A DNA stretch of 63,951 nt, the filler included, from Kipferlia bialata (taxonomy: Eukaryota): assembly GCA_003568945.1 (NCBI GenBank). It is 7 parts of 6 records of this genome, joined end to end, with 100 filler letters (N's around TTAATTAATTAA, not from the genome) between each part and the next. Parts side by side here need not be neighbours in the genome. Positions count along the whole stretch, not along the records: positions 25,291 to 30,360 come from BDIP01001071.1; 6 more parts are not named here. One strand, 5' to 3'. Position 1 is the stretch's first letter; every line of letters starts with the position of its first letter. Both the position numbers and the translations under genes were made by a program. The notes under the pieces are model-generated. The model worked only from the letters and a program-made list of their open reading frames with translations. It was not told the DNA's origin and searched no databases. Shown here piece by piece: positions 11,201-47,254 of the stretch.

Positions 11201-12284
11201 CTTGCTCTGGCCTCCCTTGCCCTTGTGGGAGGAGCCCTTGGATGTGTTGGAGTGACCCATCTTGGAGCGCTCAAAGAGCTCCTTGAGGGAGTGCTTCATG
11301 TCGGCGGTCATGCTCTTGGGGTCCTTCTGGCAGGACTCCACGTCCTGGAACCTGATGAGGAAGTCTACGGTGTACACCTTGCGAGAGATGTCGGTAGACA
11401 CACGGTCCATGTTGTTGATGTGCTTGCGCAGCTTGGCCACGGTGTCGTCGTAGTGCTCGTTGGCCTCCTCCTCGTCGCCTGGGGTCTGGGGGACGGAGGG
11501 AGATGCAGGCACGGTGCTGTTGGCAGTGGCGTACTCAGTGCCAGTCTCAGCCTCAGCCTCGATGGCAGCAGGCCTCTCACGCTCAAGGAGGGCGGCAGTA
11601 ACGGCCTCAGCCTCAACTGGTGTGGAATACCCGTCATCCTCAACGACTGGCTCAGTGACTACCTCAGTAACAACCTCTGCTACAACCTCAGCAACCTCAG
11701 CAACCTCAGCGGCCTCAGCCTCTGGGGCAGCCTCAACAGCAGCCTCAGCCTCAACAGCAGCCTCAGTCACAGGTACGGCAACAGCCTCAACTGGCTCCTC
11801 TGTGGTCACAGCGGCAGATGGCTCTGAAGCTGCCTCAACAGGGGCGTCAGAGAGGGAGGCGGGGGCATCAGTGAATCCCACGGGGCTAGACTCAAACAGC
11901 ATAGTTGGAGCAGCTGGAGTGTTCTCAAACTGAACCTCAGCAGTATCCTGTGGGGCGGTGGGCTGGGAACTGAAGAGAGGAGCGCCCTCATCTGGCTGAG
12001 AGCTGAACATCATGTCACCGGCGGCAGGTGCAGGGGCAGGAGCGTCGCTCTCACTTGGGATTCCCCATGTGTGGCGTGGGCCATAAGAAGGGCGACCAGC
12101 GTATGGGGGCTGGCCAGGGTATCCTGGGAACCCGGGGTTGTTGCCTGGGGTAAAAACGGTGAGAAGAGACATCAAATGCGTCTTGTGGCAAACAACTCCT
12201 AAAAGAACGGTTGTATTGAATACACCAACTATAAACTACTGAAACACACCACTACGACGTACTTCCTGATGGGTTGTACGACAT
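8296..12284 (-). CDS. EIF4G: Translation initiation factor eIF4G; exons 12284-12263, 12144-10703, 10592-10237, 10135-8296
   Basis: eIF4E-binding YxxxxL-phi motif (RKVYTVDFLIRF). MIF4G motifs ILNKMT, IFEKACLEENFCALY, GNIRFIGALF, IEGATLLLEAVG, PRIRFMLED. Helical MA3-like C-terminal region. Three frame-preserving GT-AG introns; N-terminus MSYNPSGSNNPGFPGY. Confidence 0.9.
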
Positions 12285-12546: not shown

Positions 12547-12646
12547 NNNNNNNNNNNNNNNNNNNNNNNNNNNNNNNNNNNNNNNNNNNNTTAATTAATT
12601 AANNNNNNNNNNNNNNNNNNNNNNNNNNNNNNNNNNNNNNNNNNNN
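12547..12646. other. Artificial contig linker N44-TTAATTAATTAA-N44 (also 25191-25290, 30361-30460, 34513-34612, 47155-47254, 59778-59877)
   Basis: Identical 100-nt spacer with stops in all six frames, seen six times. Synteny across these points is meaningless. Confidence 0.97.
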
Positions 12647-14931: not shown

Positions 14932-17344
14932 GAGTTCCAGCACCTCAAGGATGAGACCTACCTAGACTACACAGGCAGTGCACTCTACCAGAGAGGACAG
15001 TTGAGGGTGAGTCTATATACATGATCTATATATATCTAGAGAGAGAGATTGAGAGAGTGTGTGTGTGTATGTATCTTGACTTCACAGGCAGTGCACTCTA
15101 CCAGAGGGGGCAGCTGAGGGTATGGGAATAGATATGTGTACATTGTGTTGAGAGAGAGATGGGCACTCTTCTCTCTCTCTCTCTCTATCTCCCTCCCCTC
15201 CCCTATATAGGTGTGTATCTTATGTATACAAATCACCCCAGGAGATGTTCACCCAGCTGGAGGGCAACCTTCTCTCTCTCTCCATCTCTCCATCTCCTCT
15301 TCCTCTCTCCCTATATCTATCACGCTATATGTATTATCTACTATGTCTCCCTTATCCCAGGAGATGTTCACCCAGCTCGAGGGCAACCTGTTCTGCAACG
15401 CACACTCAGGTACATATATCCATAGCATATATACATATATATATATTGCAGAGAACTCCCTGTATTATACACTGGGGACATACATTATATATATTCTTAC
15501 CCCCAGACTCGTCGTGTTCGCAATGATGTCTCTATATAAATAGGTATATATGGGTTGGTAGATACATTTGATCTTATCCTACGTTTGTTCTTTTCCTTGT
15601 GTGTCTAGTCTCACCCTCTAGACTCGTCCTGTTCCATGAGGACTGAGGCCGAGGTGACCAGTGTCAGAAGGACAATCATGGACTGGTTCAACTGTGGAGG
15701 TATGTATACACATTTATATATATCTATTTACAATATTGTGTATACATGTCCTCGTTCTAGTAGCCAATCATGGGCTGGTTCAACTGTGGGGGTATATGAT
15801 GTGTATAATATATACCATAATGTGTATACATTCTCTCTCTCTCTAAAGGACAATGGACTGGTTCAACTGTGGGGGTGAGTCAGATTCTACTTTCGGTCTC
15901 TCTCCCTCTCTCTACCCCCTTATTCTTCAGACGACTACACTGTCATCTTCACCGCTGGTACCACTGCCTCTCTCAAGATGGTGGGAGAGACATTCCCATG
16001 GTCCGAGGTATGTACAGTCTAATATGCAATAGAACTAGAAGTCACTAACCTTGCTATCCTCTTACCCCATCCCCCCCCCCATAGCCTACATAGTGTATAC
16101 ACGTATGTATATGTACATTATGCACCAATTATCCTGTCTTCTTCTTACCCCAGCACTCCCTGTACGGCTACTCCAGACACAACCACAACTCAGTGCTGGG
16201 CATGAGGGAGCTGGCAATGGCTAAGGTATGGGGTATTAGTATTTGTTCATATAGTATATGTGTATATATTAATGTATACATACTCAGTGCTGGGCATGAG
16301 AGAGCTGGCAATGGCCAAGGTATATGTGTGTGTATATATACATTGGTGTGTCTAGACGTGCAGACCACTTACCCCCCATGGCTCCTCCTTCCTGGCAGTA
16401 GGGTCACATATACCAAACAACATATGGTATATGTACGTATATATGTATAGAGAGTATATAGGCAGGTGTATGTACTCACTCCCAGGGCTCCTCCTTCCTG
16501 GCACTGTGTACCTGTATATATTCATTCTTATACAGATATTATTAACACAGTGTATTGTAGAGTATTTACTGTCTACTACTTACTTACCCCCCAGGGCTCC
16601 TCCTTCCTGGCCGCAGAGTGGGACCTACAGGACCCAGAGTACATACAGCAGTTCATGCCCAAGGAGGTATGCATACATTAGTTGTAGAATACATATATAT
16701 ATGTTAATCTTCGTTTCATGTATCCTCCCTCACTCCCAGTCTGAGGAGGAGTCCTCTGAAGAGCCAGTGGAGCAGTTCAACCCAGAGGTACAATGCGTAT
16801 ATGTATATGTATGATGGGAATATGTAGGTGGATATAGAATATATAGGTGGTATTCACTCACTCTAGGAGACCCCTGCCCCCCTCAATGATGAGACCGAGG
16901 AGGCCTTCCACCTGTTTGCATTCCCCGCAGAGTGCAACTTCAGTGGCATCAAGTGAGTTATAGTGTCTTCTGTATTCACTATTCATTATACACATATTAT
17001 ATATATACCATCTATACTACATATATTCTGTCACCGAGGTGTATGAGCACATATGTCCTCGCCCTCAGATACCCCCTTGACCTTGTGCATGCTCTATCCC
17101 TCTCTCTCTGTCTCTCTCTTCATGTGTATATAGAATAGTATGTGTCCTTATTCCCAGGTACCCCCTGGACCTAGTGCATGCTCTCAAGAGAGGTACACTC
17201 GGAGAGCACCTACTGTCTAGGTAGTGTACCAGAGTATATACATACAGCACAGTGGTAAATGTGGATATATGTAATATATCTACTCCGACACCAGAGCCGT
17301 TGAGACCTCTGCCATGCCCCCTGGGTACAATGTCTCTCTCTCTC

Positions 17345-17384
<40 letters not shown>

Positions 17385-18285
17385 TGTAGTATACGTTTCC
17401 TTACCCTCCAGAGCCGTTGAGACCTCTGCCATGCCCCCTGGGTACAAGAACAGGACCAACACATGGAGAGTGTGTGTGGACGCTGCTGCATATGCACCCA
17501 CTAACCCACTCGATCTACAGGTACGCAAATAGTATATATGGATTTCATATGTACTATACATATGTATGAATATTACTTCTTTTTCCACTGGATCTACATG
17601 TGACTACCCACTATATATAGAGAGAGGCGTGTATTCAGTAATAGTATGTACGTGTATATATCCCCTCACCCCAGGCCTTCCCCGCTGACTTTGTCACCAT
17701 GTCCTTCTACAAGCTGTTCGGCATCCCCACAGGCCTGGGGGCACTACTCGTCAGGTAGTCTAACGTACTCAGTCCCTATGTATATATGTTCTTTAACAAA
17801 TACATGGATTGATTACCCCCCCTCACCCAGGAAGGACGTGGCACTCTATCCACTCTACATTGTACTTATATGTACCTACATATGTTCCTATGTATTTATA
17901 TCTCCCCCTCACCCCAGGAAGGACGTGGCACACTACTCCACTGCAAGTAGTATATAATACTATAAATGTATAACCCCTTTGAATATATATACGTATACAC
18001 CCCCCCCCCTCACTCCCCAGGAAGGACGTGGCACCTTTCATGAACAAGACGTTCTTCGGAGGAGGTATTGTTAGTACATGCACAAATACACATATACCCT
18101 GTTTACGAGAGGAATACACACCATTATACTATTCTCTCATTGTCTATTGATTACCATTGTTGTCTATCTTCCCCCTAGATAATACATGCTTTGGACGAGT
18201 ATACACATATATGTTGTGTTTCAATAACACTTGGGGTGTCGTACAGCATTTGTCTCACCCCAAGGCACTGTCGTTGCCGTGTCCT

Positions 18286-18320
<35 letters not shown>

Positions 18321-18724
18321 ACATATCCCTTATATTCAATACCTTACACACAGGCACTGTGGTTGCTGTGTCCTGCGACTCCTCCTTCTGCAAGCTGAGG
18401 TGAGGCTAAATATATATATCGTGGTACGATATTACTCCTCTGTTTAATACTTCTCTGACCCCAGACCCATCTCCAACGAGAGGTTCGAGGACGGCACAAT
18501 CTCATTCCTCGACATCATTGGACTGAGGTGTGTATAGTACTCTAACATCGTATATATATATATATATATATACCAATATATATATACCTATATCAATACA
18601 TATATCTATCTATATACATGAATATATATATAAATCATTGGGCTGAGGTATGTTTGTTTGTTTTACAATACATGGCAGTCAACCAATCGCCGGCTACAAT
18701 ACCTTCAAGTCCCTTGGAAAGCAG

Positions 18725-18760
<36 letters not shown>

Positions 18761-20748
18761 TCTCTCTATCTATATATATCTAGTATTTTTGTCTCGTTTT
18801 AACGCTGGCTTCAACGTGTTTGAGTCTCTCTCTCTTTCTCTCGCTATTTCTTTCTCTCTCTCTACATGATGATATCTAATATCAGTGCTGGCTTCAATGT
18901 GTTCAAGTCCCTTGGCAAGCAGGCCATCACAGACCATGTCTGGACACTCACCAGATACCTCTACTTGAGGGTCAGCGCCCTCAAGCACAAGTGAGTATAG
19001 TTGTGGGTATACATATATACATACACTATTACATATTACTACTACTACGTGATCACGTATATATCTCAGAGTCAGTGCCCTCAAGCACAAGTGTACTCCC
19101 CACACAATATGTTGATATAGAGGACTATCTAGTGTAAATATTGTACTCCATATATCTAGTATTATCTTTCTTACCCCCAGGAATGGCCGTCCCCTCCTAG
19201 AGATATATGGCAACCACGAGCACGGAGACCCAAAGAGACAGGTACGTATTCAAGTCTTAGTTGTAGATTGCTGAGCACGGAGAGAAGTATTTATCCTACG
19301 CCATTGGAATGTACCACTTTTCATGTCTCACTCCAGGGCGGAATCCTCTCCTTCAATGTCCTGTCGCCCAAGGGGCAGTACGTGCCATTCAAGATTGGTA
19401 CGGTGTTACTTTACTTGTAGTTCTTGACATTTATATTAAGTGTATATATTACTATGTACATTTCGTGTTTCTTCCTTACCACCCAGTGATGGAGGCTGCC
19501 AAGACCTCCAACCTCATCATCTCTCCCCTGTCAGTGATTACTCCAACCATACTATGTTCCTCCATAAATGTATTGATATATCCATATACACTAACCCCCA
19601 GTGATGGAGGCTGCCAAGACCTCCAACATCATCTCCTATCCCCTGCCAGTGATTACTCCAATCATACTATGTTCCTCTATATATATGTGTGTGTATGAAT
19701 ATATATACTAGTATTCTTACCCCCAAGTGATGGAGGCTGCCAAGTCCTCCAACCTTCTGGAAATGCATATACAATGATGCATAACTCATGTGTGTAATCA
19801 NNNNNNNNNNNNNNNNNNNNNNNNNNNNNNNNNNNNNNNNNNNNNNNNNNNNNNNNNNNNNNNNNNNNNNNNNNNNNNNNNNNCTTACCCCCATCCTTAC
19901 CCCCAGTGATGGAGGCTGCCAAGGCCTCCAACCTTCTGCTCAGGGCAGGGGCACACTGCAACCCAGGGGCCGCTTTTGGGTACGGGTAGTGAATAGATAG
20001 TATAGTTTGGGTAGTGGATATACAATTAATGGTATCGTATTATATAGTATCACCGTATACTTCCGGTGGGTTCTAGTGGACGTTCAATTTATGATAGACC
20101 ACTCTATACTCTTCACCTTTCCATCCCGATATACCATTAACATGAGTAACTGTACCCATATATATGCATGTGCACCATGTCATTATATCCTTCCTCTCAC
20201 CCCAGCTACCTGACGATCGAGGAGGAGGACGTCCAGACAATTCTGCAGGTATACAGTAGTGTATATAGTATATTATATATATATATATATATATTATTAA
20301 CTATTCCCTCCGTATGTTATTATGTACTAGTGTACCATGTATGCAAGTACTGTGTCTCCCTAGCTGTACTATGTATACCTTGTGCATATAATATATATAC
20401 CTTACTCCAGGAGCGTGAGTCCTGCCACGCTGGTGACGGTATGTGGGAGGGCAAGCCCCTGGGTAGCTGCAGGGCATCCCTGGGGTACCCTACTACAGTG
20501 ACAGATGGTATGTGCTAATACTGATGAATGGAAGTCACGATTATATATGTTCACCCCAGTCGACAGGCTGACCACCTTTCCCAATACCTATGTGCTATTA
20601 TATCCATATGTATATTCATATAAATATATGTGTGTGTGTGTGTATGTATATGTGTTTGTGTGCACATACTCTCCTCACCCCAGTCGACAGCCTAACCACC
20701 TTCCTCAAGGCCACCTACACAGACAGAGACATGCCCAAGGATATGTAG
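14932..20748 (+). CDS. Molybdenum-cofactor-sulfurase-like (ABA3/MOCOS NifS-type, class V PLP) protein, about 21 exons, 5'-incomplete, no MOSC domain
   Basis: Exon peptides [88 protein letters not shown] (PLP Lys), [33 protein letters not shown]; stop TAG at 20746-20748. Confidence 0.9.
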
Positions 20749-21466: not shown

Positions 21467-24400
21467 CTACACAATTGTCTGCTGCACACCCATATGTGAA
21501 ACAGAGGGTACATACACTGCGGCCTTCCTCTCTGGGTATACCAGCAGCATCAGAGACACATACTCCATAGTGTTCATGCAGATGTTGGAGAGGGACTTGA
21601 CCTGCGGATAAGAGGTGTACATACATATACAAAGATAGAGAGAGAGAGAGAGATACACACTCCATGGTGTTAATACATATGGTGGAGAGGGACTTGACCA
21701 ATGGTGGCATGAGAGATTAATGGAGAGAGAAAGGAGAGACACGCATATACTAATTACTTACACTCCTGATGCAACAACTATACACAAGTACACACATATA
21801 TATGAATATAAATGATTAGGTATACATATACATACCTCCTGACTGGGCACCCACCACTCCATCCTGATCAGGACGTACAATTATATAAACACATATACAT
21901 ATGTATATATATATATACACATATATGTATACCTCCTGTGATGGTACCCACCACTCCATCCTGATTAGGAAGTATATCAGCTTGGACCCGCCATATGTCA
22001 GGATGAACACGGGTAGAGCATACACCTTGGAGACCTAAGTATTAGGCCTAGTAGAGACAATGGTACTAAATATGATATATAAATATATACATTCATATAT
22101 AGGATACAAGATATATATATAATGATATATACATAGGTCAGGATGAGCACGGGGAGGGCATACATCCTGGAGACCTGGGTTAGAATTGCAAAGAGGGAGA
22201 GAGAGACAGACGCACAGAATACATGCATCTTGGAGTCATGACTGTATCATTGTTGAATACAATGGTATACAGACCAACATGTCTCTACCTTCTGTCTCTT
22301 GTGAGATGCCTCCTCTGTATCACTTCTAGTGAGCATATATACTAATGTATATACATACCAATATATATGTATAGATATATATATATACTGATCCTTACCT
22401 TCTGTCTCCTGTGCGATGTTTCGTCTGTGTCACTCCTGGTGGTGGAGAGGACAATCTTGCTCACACGCTTGGTGGATCGCCTGAGAAATGAGTAAATATT
22501 TACCAACCTTGATTCGCTATATAAATCATTCTGCTGTATGTACTACAGTACTATACATGCATATACATTGACATCAATGTATATATACCCAATCATGACC
22601 ATGACTAGCAGGATGACAGAGACGCATATAGAAATATACAAGAATACAGATATATTTATATATATACGTAAATATACAAAGAATATGTATATTACTATAT
22701 ACCTCCTCATTGCCACCTATGGTTATCAGTATGACAGACATTTACATACATTATGTATCTATATGTATATACTAATATATATATACATATGTATGTATAT
22801 ATATATATATATATATATCTGTACCTTCTCATATATAACTGTACCTTCTCATTGCCACCATAACCACTAGGATGACAGACAGATGCATGATCTGCAGAGT
22901 GCCCAGGATTTGGTACAGGGCAGACACCTGGTTCATATGGGTATCCTAAGGGTAAAATAGAATACTATATATATACATAGATATATATATATGTGTATAT
23001 ATGGAGAAGGAGATTAGTAACAAAGCGGGAGAGAGAGAGAGATTGAGTTGCACAGTATATGTGAGGCAGAGCTGCAGAGAGAGATGTTAATATTTATATG
23101 TGTTGTATAAGTGTAAGCAACCACATACCAGTGCCTCCTGTGTATCTGTCTCATGTTCTTTGACCCATGTGAAGTCCCACACAAAAAGGGTCACAGTGAC
23201 CACAGCCAGGACGGCACAGACAGCTGTACTGATATCAGTATCAGATGCACATATGAATATATATCTGTGTGTATATGAGAATGATGAATCTATACAGACT
23301 ACCACAGCCAGGATAGCACAGACGGCAGTGCCGATGTGAGTTAAGAAACCAAAAACTAATCATATAAATATATGAGAATATAGAGATACAGTACTACAGC
23401 CAATAGGGCACAGACAGCAGTGCTTGAATGAGCGTATTACTTGGAGTATATCTATATTCCACCTCCATCATATACTACAGATACTGATACTGATACATCA
23501 TGAAGTATCATTATTTCACAGATAGAAACTTGACCATGTGGGTCATACCTTGTTCGTGTTATGATATATAATACAATATATTATATATTTATATTATACA
23601 TATTATATATACTTGACCATGTGGGACATGCCTTGTCCGTGTGATGCGTCTGAAGGTACGTGTGCTCCTGAGCCCACGGAACACCTGGGGGTTAGAGTTA
23701 ACGATATATGTCTATGATATCTGATGAATATGTGTAAATGTTTTTACATGTGGCAGAGATACTATGTGGGGAGTGCAGTGACACAAGAAACATTTACATG
23801 TATACATTAGACATATATTGTAGTGGATGCATATGAATAGCACTATCTACCTCGGGCAGAGTGGCATTGTCATGAGCACTGTGACTTCAAATACTATATA
23901 GAATACAGTAAAGACTATAAAGACTATATATACTGCATATACTACAACAATATAAAGATTACATTTACATNNNNNNNNNNNNNNNNNNNNNNNNNNNNNN
24001 NNNNNNNNNNNNNNNNNNNNNNNNNNNNNNNNNNNNNNNNNAGATCTGTACCTGTATAAATATCAGGCAGAGTGGCATTGTCATGAGCACTGTGACACCC
24101 GAGGTCAGGAATGTGAAGGTGGGATCCCCTGAGTGTAAGTATATAGAAACATATACAAATAGAGAGAGAGAGAGAGAGACAGTGGCACCCGAAGTCAGGA
24201 AGGTGAAGGCGGGGTCACCTTAGTGTAAGGGTATGTATAGAGAGAGAGAGAGAGAGATAAGAATCATCTGTTTCGAGACATACATTGCTTGAAACATACC
24301 GAAGAATCCGTACACCTCACTTGGCCAAAAGAAGTACGCTGCCACGATGACACCCGTGAATGTACTGGGGGTTAGAGGGTGTAGTGAATGAAATGAAATC

Positions 24401-25154: not shown

Positions 25155-25329
25155 GGGGGGGGGGGGGGGGCAAAAGAAGAGGGGGCCCAANNNNNNNNNN
25201 NNNNNNNNNNNNNNNNNNNNNNNNNNNNNNNNNNTTAATTAATTAANNNNNNNNNNNNNNNNNNNNNNNNNNNNNNNNNNNNNNNNNNNNCCACCATATA
25301 CTATATATAAATCTTGATTACACCATTAA

Positions 25330-26674
25330 CCTTCACTGGCCCTGGCACATCTGTCAGGTCAGCTGGGTCAGGGTTCTCGGCGATGAGGGCATCGGACCAG
25401 TAGTTGGCAGAGATCTTATCCTAGTGGTGAGCTGCATATATACATGATATCCTTGCATAGATATGAATATGTATATATATATATATACATAGAAAGAGTG
25501 ATGGTAAAATGAGGGCTTGTCCTATGTAATAAACGATAGACCCATGACTACATATGTGTATCCCCTGTCAGTCTATATATCTATATATGTCCATAAATAC
25601 CTTGGGGTCCGATGTGAAGTTGAGCATGTCGATGAAGTCGATGCTATATGATATAGTACACTCTCTCTCTATATATAGTAGATATACATCCAATACATAT
25701 TCATTCTGTATATACGCATATACGTATCTACCTTGGGGTCCGATGTGAAGTTGAGCATGTCGATTCTCATACAGAGTACACATTATTCACAATATATATC
25801 ACTCTACCTATCTATCTATACACATCTATCTCTCTATCCAGAAAGAGACTATATAGTACCTTGGGGTCCGATGTGAAGTTGAGCATGTCGATGAAGTCTA
25901 TATGTATATAGTGCATATACACCTTTACAGGTGTATATATATATATATATATATACTGTACTTCTATGTATATATATACCTTTGGGTCCGATGTGAAGTT
26001 GAGCATGTCGATGAAGTCGATGCTGGTGGCCTTGGCAACCTAGAGTGAGACCAAATGTATATGAGAAGAGAAAAAGAGTGACTCATTCATATAGGGCATG
26101 TCAAATGTGTATGAATACATTCAATTAGTGACATACAATGCATATCACCAACACATACGTACCTGTATCGTTGTGAATGCCCCATCCTCCTCCTCCACCA
26201 ATGAATGTATATATATATATACCATCCACTTGTACTTGTTATTGAGAATACCACAAAAAGTTGGTATATATACAATCATTCAAGCATCCATACACTGTGA
26301 ACATATCTACCTGTATCTTTGTGAATGCCCCGTCCTCACCGTTCATGCTATATATCTACCTTGATACTATACTATTAAAGTAAAATTGCGTTATAGTATC
26401 TATTCATCATACCTGTGTATACGCAATGTGTATAGCCTAACAGTGAATACCTGTATCTTTGTGAATGCCCCGTCCTCATCGTTCAAGCTATTAATCTGTC
26501 ATCATATAGTACTATAGTATATACATATGTATATATAGTATCTACTTAATATACCTGTATCTTCGTGAGTGCCCCGTCCTCATCGTTCATGGACCCAGAG
26601 GCATCGAGGGAGATGCAGACCATTAAGTTAGACAGATCAGTATAAGTAAGATGTACATACACATATGTCTAGTG

Positions 26675-26726
<52 letters not shown>

Positions 26727-28726
26727 TGTGCATGGACCCAGAGGCATCGAGGGAGATGCAGACCTATTGTGTAAGGCGGGAGTGGTCATTGTAGTAAAAG
26801 GGAGAGAGAGAGAGAGAGAGAGACATTGTTCATGGACCCAGAGACATCGAGGGAGATGCAGACCTAGGGGGTATGGGGAGTATATAATTATATACACAAA
26901 TGTGAATACAAAGCGAGAGAGAGAGAGAGAGAGAGACATTGTTCATGGAGCCAGAGGCATCGAGGGAGATGCAGACCTAGGAGTGAGAGGTATATATAAG
27001 AATACAAATACATATGTGTGTATATATGTAATATATATAGGGGGGGAGAGAGAGAGAGAGACATTGTTCATGGAGCCAGATGCATCGAGGGAGATGCAGA
27101 CCTAGGAGTGAGAGGTATATCATATATATATGAATGCATATATATATGTGTATGTAAGTAATTATATATAGGGAGCGAGAGAGAGAGAGAAAGAGAGAGA
27201 GCCATTGTGCATGGATCCAGAAGCTTCGAGGGATGCAGACCTAGTTACCAGAGGCTCTATAAACGTATAGGAGAGGAGAAGACAGAGAGAGTCATGTCTG
27301 CATTGTACGAGATATATAGTACACCGTGTACCTCCAGTGGCAGGAGCTGCTCGTCGGTGTTGCCATAGCCAGTGACAGTGAGGAGAACCTAAGAGTGAGT
27401 GTGAGGTATCAATGTCTAACACACACTCTCTATACGAATCCCTCTCAACGTGTAGAAGTACAATAATCTATATATATATTATATATTTATATTTATTTAT
27501 ATTTATATTTATTTATATTTATTCATATATATATATTATATATTTATATACATACTGTCATACCTCAAAGGTGTCGGGGAAGGGAGCATCAATGTCATTC
27601 CTAGAGTGAGAGAAGGACAAGTGATAAAAACTATATCATAAAGTGCCGAAAGTAGAATAGTGAGAATATGTCCACATAGTTTCAGATACCTCACGACAGC
27701 CGATGGTGTGACTGTCTGTGTGATCTATGTGTGAATATTGGCGATGGTCAGCTGCTTGATACATACACTCTCTGTCCACACATGTAGAAGTATATATATA
27801 TATATATATATGTGTGTGCATATATGTGTATATGTACATATATATATACCTAACTACAGCCGATGGAGTGACTGTCTTTGTGATGATCAGCTGCTTTGGT
27901 GGTAGGAGAGGAGAGTGAGGAGGGACAAAGGCAGGAGCTGGAGTCCTAATAATGAGTGTGGTAATAGTAATGGGTATATACTATAGATATCATTGTATTA
28001 TGTATATATATACATGTAGCTTCGGTGGAAGGAGGGGTGAAGGAGGAGGGACAACGGGAAGAGCTGGAGTTCTCTGGTTAGTGGTAACAACACATCTACT
28101 TTCTCTATATGTTCATATATATACATAAATACGCTAATAGGGAGGGGCAGAGACAACGGGAAGGACACGAGTCCTGTAATGAGGATGGAACAAGTAAGTG
28201 GAGTAAACATCACATGGGCATATTATATATATGTTGGTGTATAGTCACACATATGCCAATACCTAGCCTCAGGCTCTGTCCTTGTCAGCGGCTCTCTGTA
28301 TATGACCATACGTAGATAGATATATACATATACGTATATACTACACTATATACAACTTAGTTACCTAGCCTCAGGCTCTGTCCTTGTCAGTGGCTCTCTG
28401 TACATGGGCTTCTCGGGGTAGAAGCAGCGCTGGGGTGAGACGGAGGGTATAGAGTTCTAAACAAGACTAGTGTATATATTCAACAAGTATGTGGGTGTAT
28501 TATGTATGCATACCTCACTGGTTGGGCATGGTATGAACCGCATGGCACACTTATATATGTGTATATATGTACAGTGTTTATTATGGTATATATATGTATG
28601 TATATATACATTACCATATACCTTGCTAGTAGGGCATGGAATGAACCGCATGGCAGCACACTCCCCAAGGTCTGTGTCATAGAAGGGGGCCAGGCATTGG
28701 TCAGCATCGAAGAGAAGCTACTAGTT

Positions 28727-28772
<46 letters not shown>

Positions 28773-28811
28773 GGGCCAGGCACTGCTCGGCATCGAAGAT
28801 CAACTGAGTGT

Positions 28812-28856
<45 letters not shown>

Positions 28857-29860
28857 GGGCCAGGCACTGCTCGGCATCAAAGAGAAGCTAAGTGTTAAAG
28901 AGAGAGAGACATAGAGAGATACCATGGGCCTGTCTGAGTATATATTACGAATGCCAAGATTATTGTGTATACAGTATATGAATATACATATACCTGATTT
29001 GCCATTGGGCATGACCTGTCTGTGAGGAGTCATAGTCTGAATATACAATACTAGGTATGTAGTATATATACATATATGTACATATTCATATATATATATA
29101 TACATACTAATACCATCGGCCATTGGACAGCTCCTTGATCTGTCTGTGGAGTCATAGTCTGTGTATACTAATAAATATAGTGTATATAGTATATATATAT
29201 ATATATATATACATTCATATATATATTTATATAATACATTCATATATATATATATATATACTATTACCTGGTCTGCCATAGGACAGCTCTTGGCTCTGTC
29301 TGTCGAGTCATAGTCTGGGATGTAGACCAGGGAGGCATCGCCGTTACTGGGGGTGAGTACATGGTGTATATATACATATATATATAAGGAGAGAGGAAGA
29401 GAGAGAGTGGCTGGGAGGCATCGCCAGTGCTAGAGGGTTAGTACATTCAATTGTATTGATATATACATATGTATATACGGATAGAGAGAGAGAGAGAATG
29501 GCTGGGATGTAGATGAGGGAGGAATCGCCGGTGCTTAGGTTAGCACCCATTTGTTGATAAATCTACTCACAGTAGTCTACGCAGCCTAACCACACTCTTC
29601 ACCCGCTCTCTGCCAGATAGATAGGCATACTCTCTCGGTCTCCATATATATACTGTCACATATACACTATACCTCTCAGAGTCTGTGCAGACTGACTTCA
29701 GACCAGTGCCACTCTCTCTCTTTTCTTTTTCTCTCTCTATATATATATGTATGTATATATAGTACCTCTCGAAGTCTATGCAGACTGCCCTCAGTCCAGT
29801 CCCAGCCTCTGCCAGGTATGAGTGACAGGCAAGGGCATCATCATGCCACAGGGCAAGAGC
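25330..29860 (-). CDS. vWA (MIDAS DxSxS) domain-containing protein, internal fragment
   Basis: Exon 26620-26555 encodes VCISLDASGSMNDEDGALTKIQ, followed by VAKATSIDFIDMLNFTSDPK and DKISANYWSD, as expected for vWA beta1-alpha1-beta2. Upstream exons are Cys-containing, suggesting an extracellular protein. Confidence 0.7.
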
Positions 29861-29970
29861 TGAGATGAGATATAGATATACATGTATATATATGAAGAGA
29901 GAGAGAGTGTGTGTGTGTCACAGGCAAGGGCATCATCATGCCACAGGGCAAGAGCTGATGTTATACGTAT

Positions 29971-30001
<31 letters not shown>

Positions 30002-30624
30002 TATAGGAGTGACAGGCCATGGCATCGTCATGCCACAGGGCAAGAGCTACTATCAGAAGTAGAGAGAGAGAGAGAGTGTGTGTGAGAGAGAGAGAGAGAG
30101 AGGAGTGACAGGCAAGGGCATCACCATGCCACAGTGTAACGGTTGAAGTTAGTTATATAGATACTCATTTATACATATAGAGATAGAGACAGAGACAGAG
30201 CAAGAGAGCATATATATGTGTGTGAAGAGAGAGAGAGAGAGAGAGAGATGGTAGTCCATGGTATATAGACATACAACACGGCAAGAGCAAGGATGAGACA
30301 AATTGATATATAAGGAGAGGGGGGGGGGGGGGGGGGGGGGGACGCAAAACCCACAAGATTNNNNNNNNNNNNNNNNNNNNNNNNNNNNNNNNNNNNNNNN
30401 NNNNTTAATTAATTAANNNNNNNNNNNNNNNNNNNNNNNNNNNNNNNNNNNNNNNNNNNNGAGGAGAGAGAGGGGGAGGGGGGGGGGGGGGGGGGGAATC
30501 GCCAGTCTGCCTATTGTCAGGTATATATTTACAAAGAGAGAGAATCTGGACAGTCTACCTAGTGTGAAATGAATATATACACATCTCTATATATAACGAG
30601 AGAGAGAGAGAGGTGTGCACATAC

Positions 30625-34491: not shown

Positions 34492-34703
34492 ACCCCCCCC
34501 CCCACCCCCTCCNNNNNNNNNNNNNNNNNNNNNNNNNNNNNNNNNNNNNNNNNNNNTTAATTAATTAANNNNNNNNNNNNNNNNNNNNNNNNNNNNNNNN
34601 NNNNNNNNNNNNCCCTTCCCTTTTCGGTCTTTCCCCCCCCCCCCCCCCTCTCTCCCCCTCTCTCTCTGTCTTGATGGCCACTCAAGCCTCTAACCCCCTT
34701 CAG

Positions 34704-37700
34704 GCGTCTCCACGCCTCCATACACTCTGTGCACTCACCCTCCATGGGACTGGGGTCAGGGAGAGAGAGGCCTATGTCTCAAGTGCGGAAGACACAGGTA
34801 TGGTGTTGTTCTATTCACGTGTATCTATATATGATGTGTAGATTCATTCCTACTGTCATATATACTCACTCTAGGCTATGTATGAGTCCTCTGTGCAGTC
34901 CATGCTGACCAGCTCTCATATCTATCTATCTATCTACCTAGATATATACATGTCTATACACTCACTCAAGGCCCTGTATGAGTCCTCTGTCCAGTCCATG
35001 CTGATAGGGGATATATATTTATATATAGTGTATATACATACTATCATATGTATACTAACACTAGGCACTGTATGAGTCCTCTGTCCAGTCCATGCTGACA
35101 GGGGATATATGTATCTATATTATATACATACCCACAAGTATATATATAGTATATATACCTACTATCATATATACACATATACTAACACCAGGCACTGTAT
35201 GAGTCCTCTGTGCAGTCCATGCTGACAGGGGATATATATATATATCTATATAGTATATATACATACTAATATATATACACACTAACACTAGGCACTGTAT
35301 GAGTCCTCTGTCCAGTCTATGCTGACAGGGATATATCTATATAGTATACATATCCACAAGTATATATATATATATAGTGACACTTACCCTAGGCCTTGTA
35401 TGAGACCTCTGTCCAGTCCATGCTGATAGGGGATATATATACCTTCACATATGTATATACACGTAGTAGTATGTATATATATAGTATATACTTACCTTAG
35501 GCCCTGTATGAGTCCTGTGTCCAGTCCATGCTGACAGGAAGTGATGAGACTACAAGTCAAGAGATGGAGGAGAGGAGAGTGAGGTATATATAGTGTATAT
35601 ATATATACATAGAGAGAGAGACAAAGGGGGAGAGAGAGAGAAAGACTGACCAGCCAAGAGATGGAGGAGAGAAGAGTGAGGTATGTGGTGTTTGTTTAGA
35701 GAGAGCGATAGAGAGTAAGATAGGGAGAGAGAGAGACAGGGACTGATTGGTGATGTGCATGAGAGGAGAGGGTATAGAGTATAGAGAGAGGGAGAGGGAG
35801 AAAGAGAGAGAAGGTCAGGGACTGACGAGCAATGATAACTCTTCTTCTGTCGCTCTCTATTTGTTGTGTACTATATATCCCTGTTACTTTCCAGTGTCTC
35901 TCCCTTCCTTGTATATCTATCCCTCACCACCCAGATACCTTGAGGACCTTGGCTATGGCGATGTGGCCAAGCAGATATTGGAGGTATACTATATGTATAT
36001 ACATGTAGTGAATACATGAATTATATTGTGCATACCTACAAGGCCTATGGCGATGTGGCCAAGTAGATATTGGAGGTATATATGTATATGTAGTCTCTAG
36101 TGTATATATACATACCCTTGTGAAAATCATGGTTTGAAGATGCTATGATGTCGCCAAGGAGATCATTCATTTGTGAAGAACAACGATACATTTGATTAGT
36201 TTGTGCACATACACACACGCTACCCCTCCCCTCACCCCCCAGGCCTCCCCTGCCACTATATGGATATATATATATATATATATATATCGATATATGAAGA
36301 CATATTACAGCTCTCATGCACTCTATATATCTGCACTCTACACCCACTACCCCCAGGCCTCCCCTGCCCAGCCCAGCCAGATACAGACACCCATCAAGAA
36401 GAGAGGTATATATATATATATTNNNNNNNNNNNNNNNNNNNNNNNNNNNNNNNNNNNNNNNNNNNNNNNNNNNNNNNNNNNNNNNNNNNNNNNNNNNNNN
36501 NNNNNNNNNNNNNNNNNNNNNNNNNNNNNNNNNNNNNNNNNNNNNNNNNNNNNNNNNNNNNNNNNNNNNNNNNNNNNNNNNNNNNNNNNNNNNNNNNNNN
36601 NNNNNNNNNNNNNNNNNNNNNNNNNNNNNNNNNNNNNNNNNNNNNNNNNNNNNNNNNNNNNNNNNNNNNNNNNNNNNNNNNNNNNNNNNNNNNNNNNNNN
36701 NNNNNNNNNNNNNNNNNNNNNNNNNNNNNNNNNNNNNNNNNNNNNNNNNNNNNNNNNNNNNNNNNNNNNNNNNNNNNNNNNNNNNNNNNNNNNNNNNNNN
36801 NNNNNNNNNNNNNNNNNNNNNNNNNNNNNNNNNNNNNNNNNNNNNNNNNNNNNNNNNNNNNNNNNNNNNNNNNNNNNNNNNNNNNNNNNNNNNNNNNNNN
36901 NNNNNNNNNNNNNNNNNNNNNNNNNNNNNNNNNNNNNNNNNNNNNNNNNNNNNNNNNNNNNNNNNNNNNNNNNNNNNNNNNNNNNNNNNNNNNNNNNNNN
37001 NNNNNNNNNNNNNNNNNNNNNNNNNNNNNNNNNNNNNNNNNNNNNNNNNNNNNNNNNNNNNNNNNNNNNNNNNNNNNNNNNNNNNNNNNNNNNNNNNNNN
37101 NNNNNNNNNNNNNNNNNNNNNNNNNNNNNNNNNNNNNNNNNNNNNNNNNNNNNNNNNNNNNNNNNNNNNNNNNNNNNNNNNNNNNNNNNNNNNNNNNNNN
37201 NNNNNNNNNNNNNNNNNNNNNNNNNNNNNNNNNNNNNNNNNNNNNNNNNNNNNNNNNNNNNNNNNNNNNNNNNNNNNNNNNNNNNNNNNNNNNNNNNNNN
37301 NNNNNNNNNNNNNNNNNNNNNNNNNNNNNNNNNNNNNNNNNNNNNNNNNNNNNNNNNNNNNNNNNNNNNNNNNNNNNNNNNNNNTAGGCCAGCCCAGCCA
37401 GATACAGACACCCATCAAGAAGAGAGGTATGCATATATACATACATTGTATGTGTATAAGGACTCAGAGAGTGTTATCCATGGGCAAGACTACCAGTATG
37501 GCAATGAAGAATAGGCATTGCATATATGGCAAAACATACTGTTCACATTCCCCCAAATAATGCTGATATATATATTTCTGTTATGTCCTCTTTCCCCTGA
37601 CCCCAGGTCGGAAACCTGGGAGTCTGGCCATTGTGAACAGAATCAGAGACAGGTACGAGTGTGTTGTATATGTATGTATATGTTCGGCCTAGTAGGACCA

Positions 37701-38605
37701 CTGGTTCACTCTACACATATCCCTACCCCCCGTCTAACCCCCCAGGATCAATGGCTCTCTGGCACGTGACCTCGAGGTAAGGACAGTACTGTGTACTTTG
37801 TGTGCAGTGTAGTATATCGTATTCACTATACACATAAGAGTAGTTCTTTCTGCTCTCCATTACTCTCTGGATAGTATTTTGGACGTTATGGGCACACAGC
37901 CTGATACTGATACTGATACTGATGTGCGCGTGCTTATATATATATGTGTAGTATGCACCTTACCGCAGGCCCTATCCCGCCGCCCCCTGTCCCAGTACAC
38001 TGAGTGCACAGACCAATGCATCAGACGCATATACAGCATACACGGTGGGTATTGAGTGTGATCTTCGTTTACCCTACTGTGATATTGCCTATTTGTGCCT
38101 CTCACCCCAGCCACCTATTATCCTAGTTCTATAGTTGTCTCTCTCTCTCTCTCTATCAATAGTTGTCTCTCTCTCTCTCTCTATCAATAGTTGTCTCCCT
38201 GCATATCGTCTATATTCATATCCCTCCCTCCCTATATTTTTGTCTCACCCCCAGCCACCTGTTCTGAGTCCCTGACTGCACTGCTCCACTCCCCAATGCA
38301 GGTGGGGTATATGGATTTGAGTACATATGTGTATGTAGTTATATTTACGCAATATATGTATATGTGTCTCTATGCCCGCACTGCACCACTCCCCAATGCA
38401 GGTATGGGGGATAGTACATTTTTTGTTCAACGGTGTATAGACACTATGTGCAGTATATATTTGTGGTTCAATTGTATTTGTATCCTCACCCCAGGAACAG
38501 TGTGTAAAGCAGGCCAGTCTCTCTCATATATATATGATATATATGTATATTCAGTATATATATCCATGCACTCTGACCCCAGGAGCAGTGTGTCAACCAG
38601 GCTAT

Positions 38606-38645
<40 letters not shown>

Positions 38646-40538
38646 AATATCTATATAGGCAGTATATATCCATGTACTGTATCTCACCCCCAGGAGCAGT
38701 GTGTCAACCAGGCCAGGGCAGGGGCCATACCAAAGGTGAGTATCAGGATACATACTACACAATTATCAGTATAACACAAAATACATATGTATGTTTGAAT
38801 ATGTATATGGGGCCAGGGCAGGGGCCATACCAGAGGTGACATGGATATATATGTGTATATACATCTATGGTAGAGTATTCTTATATGCACCTCCCTCACC
38901 CCAGGTGACTGTGCAGGACACAGCCCCACTGCACAGGGACAGGATGGACTGGCTCAACGATGAGGTAGATGCAGTGTATAGTATATATAGTATAGTATAT
39001 AGGATATATATAGTATATATACATATATCACTAGATAGGGACAGGATGGACTGGCTGAATGATGAGGTATGTACAGTGTATAGTATAGTGTGGTATATAT
39101 AGTATATAGTATACAGTGTATATGTATATATGCCACTGCACCGGGACAGGATGGACTGGCTGAATGATGAGGTGGGTATAGTGTATATATAGCTGTGTAT
39201 GTATATATAGAATATCAACAGGACCATTTAGCTCCCCCCATATATATATATATATATATATGCATTGTATAATACCATTTATGGAGCTCTCTCTCTCTGT
39301 TTATAACTACTATCATTAATCCCCAGGTTGTCAACAGGACCATGGAGCTGTACCTGGAGAACACAACGAGACGGTACGGGCATTGCTGTATACATATTAG
39401 AGTACCTTTTTTGTACTCCTCTTCCTCCTCATCTCTCCCTTCTTCTTTTTCTCTCTCTCTCTATTTGGCTAATCCCAGTGCCCACTGCTACTCCTCCTTC
39501 TTCTACCAGTCCCTGACCAGGACAGGGGGGTACAACTACGCAGCCACTAGGGTACGTCAGTACTGTATATACTGTATATATGTATATATGTAAATAGTAT
39601 ATATATATATGTATATGTGTGTGTATATGTGTATACCAGTCCCTGACCAGGACAGGGGGGTACAACTACACTGCTACCAAGGTATATACTATATGTATAT
39701 ATACACCTAAATATGCATATTGTATTGTCTTATTGTTGTACATGTGTAGTTGTGTGTAAGTATCTTACCCCTAGAGGTGGTCCTCCCGTCCCAATGTGTC
39801 CCTTGCCTGTCTCTCTATATATATACTTAAAGACATATCTCTCTTTGTGTATAGAGTGTATCTAACCCCCCGCAACCAAGGTATATTCTGTATGTATATA
39901 CACCTTAATTTGTTTATTATATTGTCTCACATCTAGAGATGGTCCTCCCGTGCCAAGGTGTCCAAATATCTATAATTTTATATCTATATAAGTATAGTAA
40001 TACATATATATATATACATCTAACACTAGAGATGGTCCTCCCGTGCCAAGGTGTCCATTGCTGACCTTGATGTGCTGTGCATACCTGTCAACTGGAACAA
40101 CACACACTGGACATGCATCGTGGCAGACTTCAGTCTCAAGGTATGTATATATATATATATTGGTATATAGTATGGGAATAGATAGTGTGTGAATATATAT
40201 TTGTGTGAATATATGTATATGTATACATACCTGTCATACATGTATTCATATTTATATACTCTATAGTAGTCTGTATATTCTTACCCTCAGTGCATCATGT
40301 ACTATGACAGTCTGGGTGGCATGAGGCCAGATGCAGTGTATATATATATACCGTATATACTATGTCTATATATATATGCCATATACCCTTAACCCTCAGT
40401 GCATCATGTACTACGACAGCCTGGCTGGCATGAGACCAGATGCATATATACGTATATATATATACCTTTTATTCAATGTAAACTGAGTATCTAACCTCAG
40501 TGCATCATGTACTACGACTCCCTGGGTGGCATGAGACC

Positions 40539-40569
<31 letters not shown>

Positions 40570-42183
40570 CTATATACTAAGTATCTAATAGCAGTGCATC
40601 ATGTACTATGACAGCCTGGGTGGCATGAGACCCGATGCAGTGTGCAATGTGGCCAGATACATACTGGACGACATACACGACAAGACACCGGAAATAGGTA
40701 AGAACTATATATATATATATATGTGTGTATATGATGATACTATATTCTATGTATATGTGGCCAGATACATACTGGACGACACACACGACAAGACACCAGA
40801 GATAGGTACAGGATTAACATGTATTTCCCATGCTCCCTCTCTCTCTCTCCCCTCACTTCCAGCCCTGTCGGACTGTATATCGGTATATCTCTCTATATAT
40901 GTGTATATATACTATATATATAGTGTATATGATCCCCCTCACCCCCAGGCCTTGACCTGTCAGACTGGGTTGGACTCGGCTACAAGGTGTGGTATTCTGC
41001 TGGACATATATTGTATATAGCTATCCAGATTGGTGGAGATTTATTATTGTTGCTGGTGCAAGGTATGGGAGAGGTGTAAATATATCTATGTGCTCTATAT
41101 GTATCCTAATATATATGTACTCTATATGTATCCTAACACCCCAGGTTGTGCAGCCCCTGCTGGACAAGTGCATTCACTCTAAATATGTATATATGTATAA
41201 TAACTAACGCATACACTGTATAGGTTCTTGTAGTATATATACTAACCCCAGGTTGTGCAGCCCCTGCTGGACATGTATCAGTCTTAATGTCTATGCTGTA
41301 TCTCTCTCTCTCTGCTTAATAAGCACCTATAAGCATTGCTTATGCCAGGTTGTGCAGCCCCTGCTGGACATGTGCCGGGGTCTGCCATACTCACACACCC
41401 TGGACATACCTAAGGTATATATATGACATAGATACTATATACAATATACTATATACTATATATACAAGTACACTATCGCTTTAGGTAGATATATGTATAT
41501 ATAATATATGATGCATATATGTGCCGGGGTCTGCCATACTCACACACGATGGACATACCAAAGGTATATATACATAGGATATATATACTATATATACAAG
41601 TACACTATAGCTTTACGTAGATATATGTAGATATATATATATGATGTATGTATGTGCCGGGGTCTGCCATACTCACACACCTTAGACATACCTAAGGTGA
41701 GTGTATATAGTACAAATACACAATAACTAGGAGTATAGGTGAGAGATGGGGGTTAGAGACAATAGATATCCCAATACTCAGGCCGCCCCCCCTCCCCCCA
41801 AGCCCCAGCCTGTGTACAGGGCACCGGTACCTGCCAGAAGACCAGTGCCCAAGGTATGTGTATGTGTATGTGTATGTATATAAGTACATACCCCAACCTA
41901 TCTCTCTATATTTATATGTATAATACATACATATGTATATGGCACCTGTACCTGCTAGGAGGCCAGTGCCTAGGGTATTTGCCTATCTCTCTCTATCTAA
42001 TAAGACCAGTGCCTAAGGTATGTGTATGTGTATATAAGTACATACCCCAACCTCTTTATATATGTGTTAATAATTAGTATATATATGGCTGCCAGGAGAT
42101 CAGTACCAAGGTACATATGTGTGTGTATCTCTCTCTACCTTTGTCTCTCTCACTATAGGAGGAGTCTGACGATGACTGCATCT

Positions 42184-42238
<55 letters not shown>

Positions 42239-42337
42239 AATCTCTATATCTCACCCCAGGAAGAGTCTGACGACGACTGCATCTCCTTTGACTGCTCCGA
42301 TGAGTATGGGGGGGAGGCAGAGGAGACAGACGACGAG
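34704..42337 (+). CDS. Ulp1/SENP (peptidase C48)-like protein with an AT-hook; many small exons, 5'-incomplete
   Basis: Spliced motifs DWLNDEVVN, CYSSFFYQSL...YAATRRWS, DVLCIPVNWNNTHWTCIVADF (catalytic His; Asp in VADF/YYDS region), CIMYYDSLGG; upstream KKRGRKPGS. The canonical QxNxxDCG motif was not found. Confidence 0.82.
34874..35540 (+). repeat. Array of 7 copies of acceptor plus exon 5' part (GCnnTGTATGAGTCCTCTGTsCAGTCCATGCTGA), period about 95-125 nt
   Basis: Copies at ~34875, 34970, 35064, 35191, 35291, 35393 and the intact exon at 35501, separated by AT-microsatellite spacers. Confidence 0.92.
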
Positions 42338-42564
42338 GTGGGGCAGTTATGTGTGTATCACTATATCTATAGATGTCCCCCCCCCCCCTCTCTCTCACTG
42401 TCCCGCCCCCTCCAACCTGGGCTCTCATGTAGTATATACCAGAATATATATATAATTATATATATACCCCCCCCCCCCCCCCCCCTCCCGTACTTGTTGT
42501 TTCCATATATGGTTCCCTGGCATAGTTTCTCTCTATGTGTCTGTCTCTCTCTCTTACCATCCAG

Positions 42565-43248
42565 ATGGTTCTCTCACTAGGAAAGTTCCCTGAGACCGAG
42601 AGCGTCAACCTCGAGAAGCTAGGTAACTCTCTCTGTCTGTCCTCTCTGTCTCCCTATATTGCCCTCCATATGTACATTATATACTTGGCACATACTGTGT
42701 ACTTCGCCTTGACCTCAATGGCTTGGTACTTTCTCTCTGTTCTATCTCTGTGTCTCTGTGTATATGCGGGTTCATACACTCTTTGTCCTCTGTACTGTAG
42801 TACTCCATTCTCTCCTCTCTCCCCTGTCTGCTTGCCGAAGGTATCTCTTCTGTCACCCATATATATATCTTACCCCAAGGCATGCCCCCCCCCCCTCTCT
42901 CTCCCCATCTCTATCCATCCACGCGTATATGTACTATAACTCATACACCTCCCTTCTGTCTCTCTCTAGACCCTTATTCTCAGGCAGCCGCAGGATGGAC
43001 TCCGCAGACAGGGGTGCCTTCAGAGGCGCCACAGTCGCAAGGTACCATACATGTATGTATGTATTTCTGTACATATTAAGAGGGAAGGGGGAAACAGTGA
43101 CATTATATAAGTGTCACCATTTCATTCATTTCTTTTCTTTTGTATGTGCCCTCAGTCTCTCTTACCCCCCCCCCCCCCCACGGGATGTCACCTTCACCCC
43201 ATTAATAATTTTCCCTCTCTTTCCCCATTTTCTGAGTGAATACATGAT

Positions 43249-43287
<39 letters not shown>

Positions 43288-43921
43288 GCCCCTTATTCCC
43301 AGGGATGCCATGGTCAAGGCACTCAAGGAGAGAGGAGCAGGTATGATATCTGAACATATTTATATGTATATCTATATATATTGTGTATAGGAGAAGGGCG
43401 TTTACGCAGGATATGGATAAGTGTATATGAAGGCAATCAAGGAGCAGGTATGATACATGTATGGATATATATATATATAGTGTAATGATTGCCCAATGAC
43501 GTACCATGTCATATATATATATATATATATATCTACACCCCTAATGTCAGACAAGGCCCTTGTTCACATCGAGCAGTACATCCCCCACCTGCTTGCCATC
43601 CAGGTACCTTATTCTAATGATTGCCACCTTATTCTAATGAGTTCCATATATACATTTGCATACGTATGTGGAATGAGGTACTCATATTATATAGAATGCA
43701 CTAATCCAATAGAACTGGGTGAAGGAGCACCGGTTCAGTGAATGTTCAGTTGCATAATAATATTACTATTTCATAGGTGTATAATTTACACTATTCTAAT
43801 GGGCGCTAGCACTAATCCAATAGAACTGGGTCAAGGAGCACCGCTTCAGTGAGGACAAGGACAAGAGCAGGCAGTACGGCACCATGCCCACATTCAAGTG
43901 GAAGTCATGCCTCAGGTATGG

Positions 43922-43959
<38 letters not shown>

Positions 43960-46292: not shown

Positions 46293-46330
<38 letters not shown>

Positions 46331-46858
46331 TGCGGAGGCAGGGCACTTGCATACATGAGGCATGTTATTTTCGCCCCTCTCTCCCTCTGTTTCCCTCTTT
46401 CTCTACACCCTATCTCTCTCGCACTACACCCTTAATGTCAGGAGGGCCAAGGAGGTCAGGGATGCCCTCAAGGCACCCAAGGGGACAGACAAGGTATGTA
46501 TATGTATAATTATGTATATGAATGTATATACATACCCAAGGGGACAGACAAGGTATATATATGTGTGTGTATATACATATATTCTCAGTCTGAGAGGCAA
46601 CAAGATCCCAACATTCATTAACGAGAGTATTGTATTCTTTATAGTGTATCTGTTTTATTTTGTGTTAATCTGGCACCTATCTAACCACCTAGATCCTTGC
46701 CAACCGTTACAATGACTTGTGGCCAGTCTATCTCTCTTTCTTTCTATGTGTGTATGCTATTCTCACAATAGATCCTCTACAAGCGCTACAACGACGTGTG
46801 GAGAGGCAACAAGAAGCAGGCGTCTCTGCTTGACGGGGAGCTGGCTGAGTACGTTCTC

Positions 46859-46893
<35 letters not shown>

Positions 46894-46996
46894 CCTCTAC
46901 ACCCTTTTCTCACCCCAGGTACGAGGAGAAGAACGGCAACATCTACCACCACCGTGTCCCATCCACCCAGAACATCACATTCCCCGCTCCATACAG
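42565..46996 (+). CDS. BRO1-domain (BROX-like) ESCRT-associated protein, 3'-incomplete
   Basis: Spliced peptide includes FPETESVNL, IEQYIPHLLAI, PTFKWKSCL, TLEYEYLMVV, ASKQLCQAAGLF, LSIAYAELC, CVGKALAYMR and YEEKNGNIYHHRVP, matching the BRO1 FxW, YE, AAGxF and NxxIYxxxVP signatures. Confidence 0.85.
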
Positions 46997-47154: not shown

Positions 47155-47254
47155 NNNNNNNNNNNNNNNNNNNNNNNNNNNNNNNNNNNNNNNNNNNNTT
47201 AATTAATTAANNNNNNNNNNNNNNNNNNNNNNNNNNNNNNNNNNNNNNNNNNNN

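Follow-up and report, generated by a model that had tools for sequence, protein, structure and literature searches.

The window analysed here is a stretch of 63,951 nucleotides from Kipferlia bialata (assembly GCA_003568945.1), composed of scaffold pieces joined end to end. N-flanked TTAATTAATTAA linkers lie between the scaffolds at 12547-12646, 25191-25290, 30361-30460, 34513-34612, 47155-47254 and 59778-59877, and genes on either side of a linker are not neighbours. Within the window, 67 exons in five genes were curated by hand, the set of each gene joining into a stop-free frame. Curated exons are 36–111 nt long, and their acceptors comprise 66 YAG sites and one TG. Many exon ends are accompanied in the adjoining introns by partial copies, here called echoes: 5' echoes repeat the beginning of an exon and 3' echoes its end.

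The TG site belongs to a minus-strand gene on the piece 25291-30360 (BDIP01001071.1). Its six furthest upstream exons (29859-29766, 29346-29268, 28717-28622, 28429-28365, 27945-27850 and 27600-27564; overall 27564-29859), several with echoes, are predicted ones, curated by hand from their stop-free joined frame. They are followed by an exon at 27332-27388 (VLLTVTGYGNTDEQLLPLE) ending in an AG|GTACAC donor, a 711-nt intron at 26621-27331, the longest of 62 curated, and a live 66-nt exon at 26555-26620 with a DxSxS (MIDAS-like) motif. The next exon, 25980-26039, has three 3' echoes ending at 25860, 25732 and 25601, and the last on the scaffold piece occupies 25331-25420. The reading frame is continuous across these 10 exons. 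The gene runs on beyond the window: a probe from the downstream loose end of the transcript contig described below has no match within it. DNA depth over 25291-25404 is about 350 above that of the listed contig, which suggests a further copy of the exon end past the scaffold edge.

The live exon (26620-26555) codes for VCISLDASGSMNDEDGALTKIQ, and its end reads AG|GTATAT. Its product contains a vWA-type hydrophobic strand followed by DxSxS (VCISLDASGSM). VWA_2 is found on 38% of the members of an Atlas lead (0.81), and motifs of the VCISLDASGSM type occur in eight bacterial loci, one of which has a sub-threshold VWA_2 hit, a comparison that is circular in that the loci were picked by the motif. 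A Pfam scan of six exons, each taken as a single piece, gave no match, and in protein searches with single-exon queries none of 16 and none of 11 candidates held the exons, which is weak evidence and compatible with an annotation that misses them. One EF-hand repeat protein, a chance match, was all that a representative-library protein search returned, and a PDB search gave no relevant structure.

Directly 5' of the complete exon, the minus strand reads TG at 26622-26621, preceded by CTAAC-TTAA. The CTAAC (26627-26631) is a predicted branch site with its A at -8 (26628), in keeping with the CTNAY spacing of the curated acceptors. The original prediction, a complete vWA/MIDAS exon following TG with no AG in the preceding ~35 nt, was confirmed: the closest upstream AG (26669-26670) ends 48 nt before the exon and the closest downstream AG ends at +42 within it, both in frame. 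The upstream AG has no branch motif and appears unused, with no RNA contig over 26622-26669.

The base at 26622, which had been singled out for verification, was assessed on assembled contigs, the level of all DNA and RNA evidence used here. In DNA run X1, contig 8 (26592-26669) contains the TG at a depth of 397, with 0 other letters and 0 gaps. Seven neighbouring X1 contigs have a mean depth of 409 +/- 22, and about 331 would be expected for contig 8 were the site heterozygous. X1 was assembled separately, although it may consist of the window's own source reads and is then not an independent library; X1 and X2, the run used for transcripts, are separate studies under one sample label. Because the independently assembled DNA contig reads TG at full depth, a hidden AG allele or a base error at 26622-26621 is unlikely. 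Contigs were placed over 25291-26998 only, with 26670-26998 left out as repeats, so that joins to echo AGs fall outside this view.

Run X2, classed as RNA by guess, provided one 1192-nt contig (contig 9, depth 7). Its matches to the window are 25330-25419, 25979-26037 and 26553-26621, with 0 other letters. It contains two GT-AG joints, 25419-25979 and 26037-26553 (CT..AC for the latter), neither of which occurs in X1. Its 30-letter loose end behind 26621 matches the upstream exon at 27333-27362, and on this end rests the junction 27332->26620. A direct join giving the observed mRNA can be placed only as GG-AT, GT-TG, TA-GG or AC-GT; at contig level the intron 26621-27331 starts with GT and ends with TG. 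Two further checks had been proposed, of the junctions made by the donor at ~27331 and of the copy whose SNPs reach the mRNA. The contig joins the upstream exon straight to 26620, and it carries the bases of the complete copy with no echo-specific base, echo 26763 being indistinguishable from that copy. The bases that distinguish six 3' echoes (two exons), and those that distinguish four of the five 5' echoes within their first 27 nt, do not occur in it. One form is seen at exon 26620, in a contig of depth 7 from which assembly would have dropped minor forms. As the genome reads TG and the assembled transcript joins the upstream exon there, TG is likely the acceptor in use. We regard the 711-nt GT-TG intron 27331-26621, on this contig-level evidence, as real and probably spliced.

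Five 5' echoes precede the exon on the minus strand, starting at 27240, 27101, 26976, 26863 and 26763, each after AG and each extending 38–40 nt to AATG and a CT tract; both the starts and the common break point had been foreseen. The echo furthest from the exon (27203-27240) is the most decayed, with AG, a 2-nt deletion and a poor branch site. The next two share the acceptor CTCAC-TCCTAG and have two (27062-27101) and one (26937-26976) silent differences; echo 26824-26863 has AG and an Ala>Val difference. The nearest, 26724-26763, has the acceptor CTTAC-ACAATAG and is identical to the live exon over 33–34 nt (four 31-mers). Three 3' echoes with GT donors follow at 26451-26485, 26311-26347 and 26163-26189. 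Their presence was as predicted, with ends at 26451 and 26163 close to the expected 26450 and 26162; the remaining one ends at 26311 and not at 26330. These copies are no product of chance: an 18-mer of the exon matched five times at <=2 mismatches, against 0.00 in 100 shuffles, and foreign exon starts matched five times in 620 intron scans as a control. Among the 62 curated exons, 5' echoes are most numerous at the one without AG, an observation made after the fact. The first two 3' echoes directly follow AG and are candidate 37-nt mini-exons (26487-26451 and 26347-26311, minus strand). Joined to the GT at position 27 of echo 26863 or 26763, such a mini-exon would give an in-frame 63-nt split exon with one MIDAS serine fewer, a form not seen in the X2 RNA contig.

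Across the window, 80 echoes were recorded (42 5' and 38 3'), found at 27 of 62 exons for each kind and never on the wrong side (0/80); these statistics describe this window only, and detection favours young echoes. AG is kept in 40/42 and GT in 36/38 (76/80 together), and a branch motif is present in 30 of the 40 AG-bearing 5' echoes vs 20 of 572 for the remaining intronic AGs. Flanking sequence is close to background level, with an alignment score of 2.4 of 28 vs 16 simulated at 20% divergence. In 73 echo–exon pairs of >=15 nt (seven shorter pairs excluded), silent changes make up 104 of 164 differences (pN/pS 0.17) and, among unique differences, 87/139 (0.63; family bootstrap 0.57–0.74; single-echo families 45/68). 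If constraint acted on the live exon alone, a silent fraction of 0.38–0.47 would be expected; this model was rejected, and the echoes are unlike dead copies in this respect. Silent and replacement differences stand at 47:17 within 14 nt of the splice site vs 40:35 at greater distance (p=0.02). In a hold-out of 12 exons, 27/46 differences were silent (p=0.017 vs 0.42, p=0.07 vs 0.467) and GT was kept in 6/6, with a weaker AG retention of 6/9. Echoes have lost AG/GT at 4/160 positions, a rate close to pN (0.03). Between sibling echoes, identity reaches 93.5% over the exon-derived part, and their flanks are similar in only 2/31 pairs.

The echo arrays at the TG exon are real tandem DNA: X1 contigs 5–7 link exon, spacers and 3' echoes at equal depth, and misassembled alleles were rejected on this ground. 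The echoes are tandem duplications across the splice site, which alone is sufficient to account for their side and their common break point. Near-identical recent units have probably been under-assembled or collapsed in the assembly. Assembly gaps lie inside echo arrays at 19801-19883 and 23971-24041, and for the copy at 24128 the live exon may lie in the gap, which would make this copy an echo. At 34875-35540 (+), six 5' echoes precede the complete copy at 35501, all seven after AG; at 40291-40640 (+), nearly all differences among three 5' echoes, and between them and the live exon, are silent, including one serine written AGT, AGC or TCC.

Acceptors and donors were scored with models trained on the same hand-curated exons. 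By motif, a CTNAY branch A falls at -7 to -9 in 60/67 acceptors, with nine different branch 5-mers and a variable spacer. The branch score of the TG site is about the median of live sites (34/66 lower). The acceptor is otherwise poor: it has A at -3 (0/66 live sites), and 65/66 live sites and 4/5 echoes score higher. TG is the best non-AG G-ending partner for the donor at 26555. None of the 66 live sites scores as low as the cryptic AGs at -48 and +42, which have no branch sites. Echo sites equal live ones in strength, outscoring their own live site in 18/37 acceptors and 17/38 donors, and an earlier good AG acceptor, one that first-AG scanning would take, is present in 28/62 introns. Only 4/42 5' echoes have a good donor 30–115 nt downstream and 2/38 3' echoes a good acceptor upstream, while the live exon is the best AG..GT pair of 30–120 nt in 48/56 cases. 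This preference for short pairs, together with the scarcity of partner sites for echoes, is what exon definition predicts. An echo-to-echo pseudo-exon at 26976-26864 outscores the TG exon, but its donor is GTC (0/66 live donors). Hairpins hiding the echo AGs are not claimed, the folding of 26540-26998 being not significant (z -1.44).

We infer that the spliceosome likely takes TG as the main or sole acceptor of this 711-nt GT-TG intron, likely chosen through exon definition, in which it pairs with a strong donor lying 66 nt downstream, and through a branch site at the usual -8 spacing. Branching would then be AG-independent, and TG would be tolerated at exon ligation under weak proofreading. 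Under exon definition half-exon echoes may be invisible however good their AG, and the five AG-bearing upstream echoes are likely skipped. The reported absence of the AG-reading factor U2AF35 likely aids TG use. In Additional file 9 of PMC6679479, U2AF35, SF1 and Prp22 are undetected in K. bialata and U2AF65, Slu7, Prp18, Prp8 and SR proteins are present. The proteome behind this table is a draft in fragments, and some of the absences may be false negatives. In yeast, Prp22 rejects non-YAG sites (PMC10711555).

TG use was one of four options named in the original prediction, and it is the one favoured here; the DNA contig and the spliced RNA contig speak against a base error and against a silent defective allele. 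An error of base calling or assembly at 26622 is hardly credible: X1 is perhaps the window's own read set and hence not an independent library, but a separately assembled contig of depth 397 has 0 differences and 0 gaps. That the TG allele is defective and the RNA comes from cells with an AG allele is very unlikely. X1 and X2 are separate studies under one sample label, and TG might be a recent one-base loss from an AATAG end; the DNA depth, however, fits homozygous TG, and the exon bases in the RNA equal those of the window exactly. The observed junction might also be an artefact, the RNA having been spliced to the AG of echo 26763 and the repeat-bounded 143 nt lost by template switching during reverse transcription or by simplification in assembly. 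We consider this improbable. RNA depth is low, the 34-nt repeat exceeds the 31-letter word size, and template switching at direct repeats is known to produce false non-canonical introns (PMC4176328). Yet the DNA graph from the same assembler is interrupted at this repeat and retains the TG branch, X1 contigs 7 and 8 ending exactly on either side of the four 31-mers that the exon has in common with echo 26763, whereas the X2 contig passes through; no RNA contig covers 26622-26669; template switching would have to dominate; and splicing to any of the five 5' echo AGs leads to a premature stop (5/5 forms).

The remaining option was that an echo supplies the exon start. Since the first 33 nt shared by echo 26763 and the exon contain no AG, this would need a non-AG junction or a homology jump. 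No spliceosomal route exists for the same reason, and a two-step canonical route through the echo was rejected, there being no AG to land on. Recursive splicing uses AG|GT ratchet sites that regenerate a good donor. It was rejected as just 7/42 5' echoes start with GT, none of the 66 live donors is GTC and the last step would still need TG. In a homology jump, echo 26763 would supply the acceptor and exon start, and a jump across the ~34-nt direct repeat would remove the TG-bearing 143 nt, either as a DNA deletion in a minority of cells or as an RNA-level event; we judge both the jump and these variants unlikely. It yields exactly the observed mRNA. The echoes also keep AG/GT (4/160 positions changed) and branch motifs (30/40) and are coding-constrained, most strongly <=14 nt from the splice site, and the exon lacking AG has the largest number of 5' echoes. 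On the other hand, DNA depth is flat at 381–437 over the TG and all spacers, which limits deleted molecules to roughly a tenth at most, and with a DNA deletion the transcripts of undeleted molecules would need to vanish. No echo-specific base occurs in the X2 RNA contig for two exons. We know of no precedent for a homology jump at the RNA level. The wider proposal, that echoes are live spare exon ends whose acceptor and first codons are joined to the rest of the exon by homology-directed DNA or RNA jumps, is equally doubtful; if true, echoes would be kept under protein-level selection, the complete copy would be free to lose its AG and the exon would depend on echo 26763. The TG site had been put forward as the best single test of whether echoes function. 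It is a weak one, because echo 26763 equals the exon for 33 nt and a homology jump from it gives an identical mRNA. The silent-site bias and the kept splice signals are better evidence that echoes may matter.

Direct splicing to TG remains our preferred reading, and echoes most likely contribute nothing to the dominant mRNA; their continuing use through a homology jump is improbable. The silent-site bias, the intact signals and an AG/GT loss close to pN suggest that echoes were working exon ends until recently. Regarding their origin, swapping in and out by unequal crossing-over in the shared exon part, between diverged alleles, is the account we favour, plausible if not quite probable, which requires introns to diverge far faster than silent sites. 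Metagenome scans revealed no second strain, with 0 matches in one and two distant 40% hits in another. Simple gene conversion was rejected by argument only, its predicted pN/pS being at least 0.5 vs the observed 0.17.

We compared the TG site with known systems. Human TG acceptors, as presented by Szafranski et al. 2007 (PMC2374985), are always alternatives to an AG within 28 nt and never sole acceptors. Like these U2 alternative 3' sites, the K. bialata site ends a GT-TG intron with a U2-type donor and has a purine at +1; unlike them, it has A at -3 and its nearest AGs lie at -48 and +42, neither of them seen in use. The branch A about 8 nt before the intron end recalls the fused branch point/3' site introns described for Giardia, Spironucleus and Trichomonas in the parts available of PMC6679479 and PMC10711314, and K. 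bialata is a related metamonad with a reduced spliceosome. The fused type, however, needs an invariant CT[A/G]ACACACAG end, in contrast to the nine branch 5-mers, variable spacer, spacing of -7 to -10, loose CTNAY and intron-rich genome of K. bialata, and for motif-bearing metamonad introns the same portions describe a 5' variant of the CT-AG type, not a TG end. By analogy, the TG site may work like a Giardia-type branch-anchored acceptor without the invariant sequence. In yeast prp18 and prp22 mutants (PMC10711555), a G-ending non-AG site near the branch point is likewise used under relaxed fidelity; there it is minor mis-splicing, whereas in K. bialata such use dominates in the assembly, and the strain is unmutated, with Prp18 reported present.

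The echoes resemble the 37-bp VNTR of human F7 IVS7, for which PMC1557585 gives a unit spanning the exon–intron border, silent copied 5' pseudo-sites and use of the exon-proximal site, and they share the border-spanning pattern of the tandem repeats at exon–intron boundaries treated in PMC2812944. In the window too, echoes span the border (0/80 on the wrong side) and the proximal site is used, the RNA carrying live-exon bases for two exons. As to a takeover by a pseudo-site after AG loss, no echo-spliced contig was seen, echo 26763 being indistinguishable from the live exon. Unlike F7 IVS7, K. bialata has echoes at both acceptors and donors (27/62 exons each), with nearly unrelated flanks and an exon part under apparent protein-level constraint. 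A literature search, made largely without subscription journals, found no description of a TG acceptor or of exon echoes in K. bialata.

A TG acceptor with no AG nearby breaks the rule drawn from human data and offers a natural test of the contributions of U2AF35 and Prp22 to AG fidelity. A weak TG that prevails over five strong AG decoys would be strong evidence from nature that a protist splices by exon definition; according to PMC2397502, intron definition is believed to prevail in protists. About four in ten exon ends have partial exon copies in which splice signals and coding constraint persist, a pattern not found in the literature searched. K. bialata is a free-living fornicate whose draft genome is described in PMC5874029 as diploid, AUGUSTUS having annotated 124,912 GT-AG introns in it; the present locus suggests that some of its exons are missed by gene models that allow GT-AG introns only.

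Elsewhere in the window, intron-dense genes with echoes on the plus strand resemble, by their motifs, those for a molybdenum cofactor sulfurase (14932-20748), a Ulp1-type protease (38255-42622), a BRO1-domain protein (43303-46996) and a WIPI/Atg18 protein (61533-63716). One ORF, on a different piece from the TG exon, matches KIPB_004832 of K. bialata with 100% identity. Long exons with Pfam matches encode a Vps8/Vps41-like RING protein (5494-6249, +), a MIF4G protein (8296-12235, -; weak hit) and an ABC transporter (51696-56633, -).
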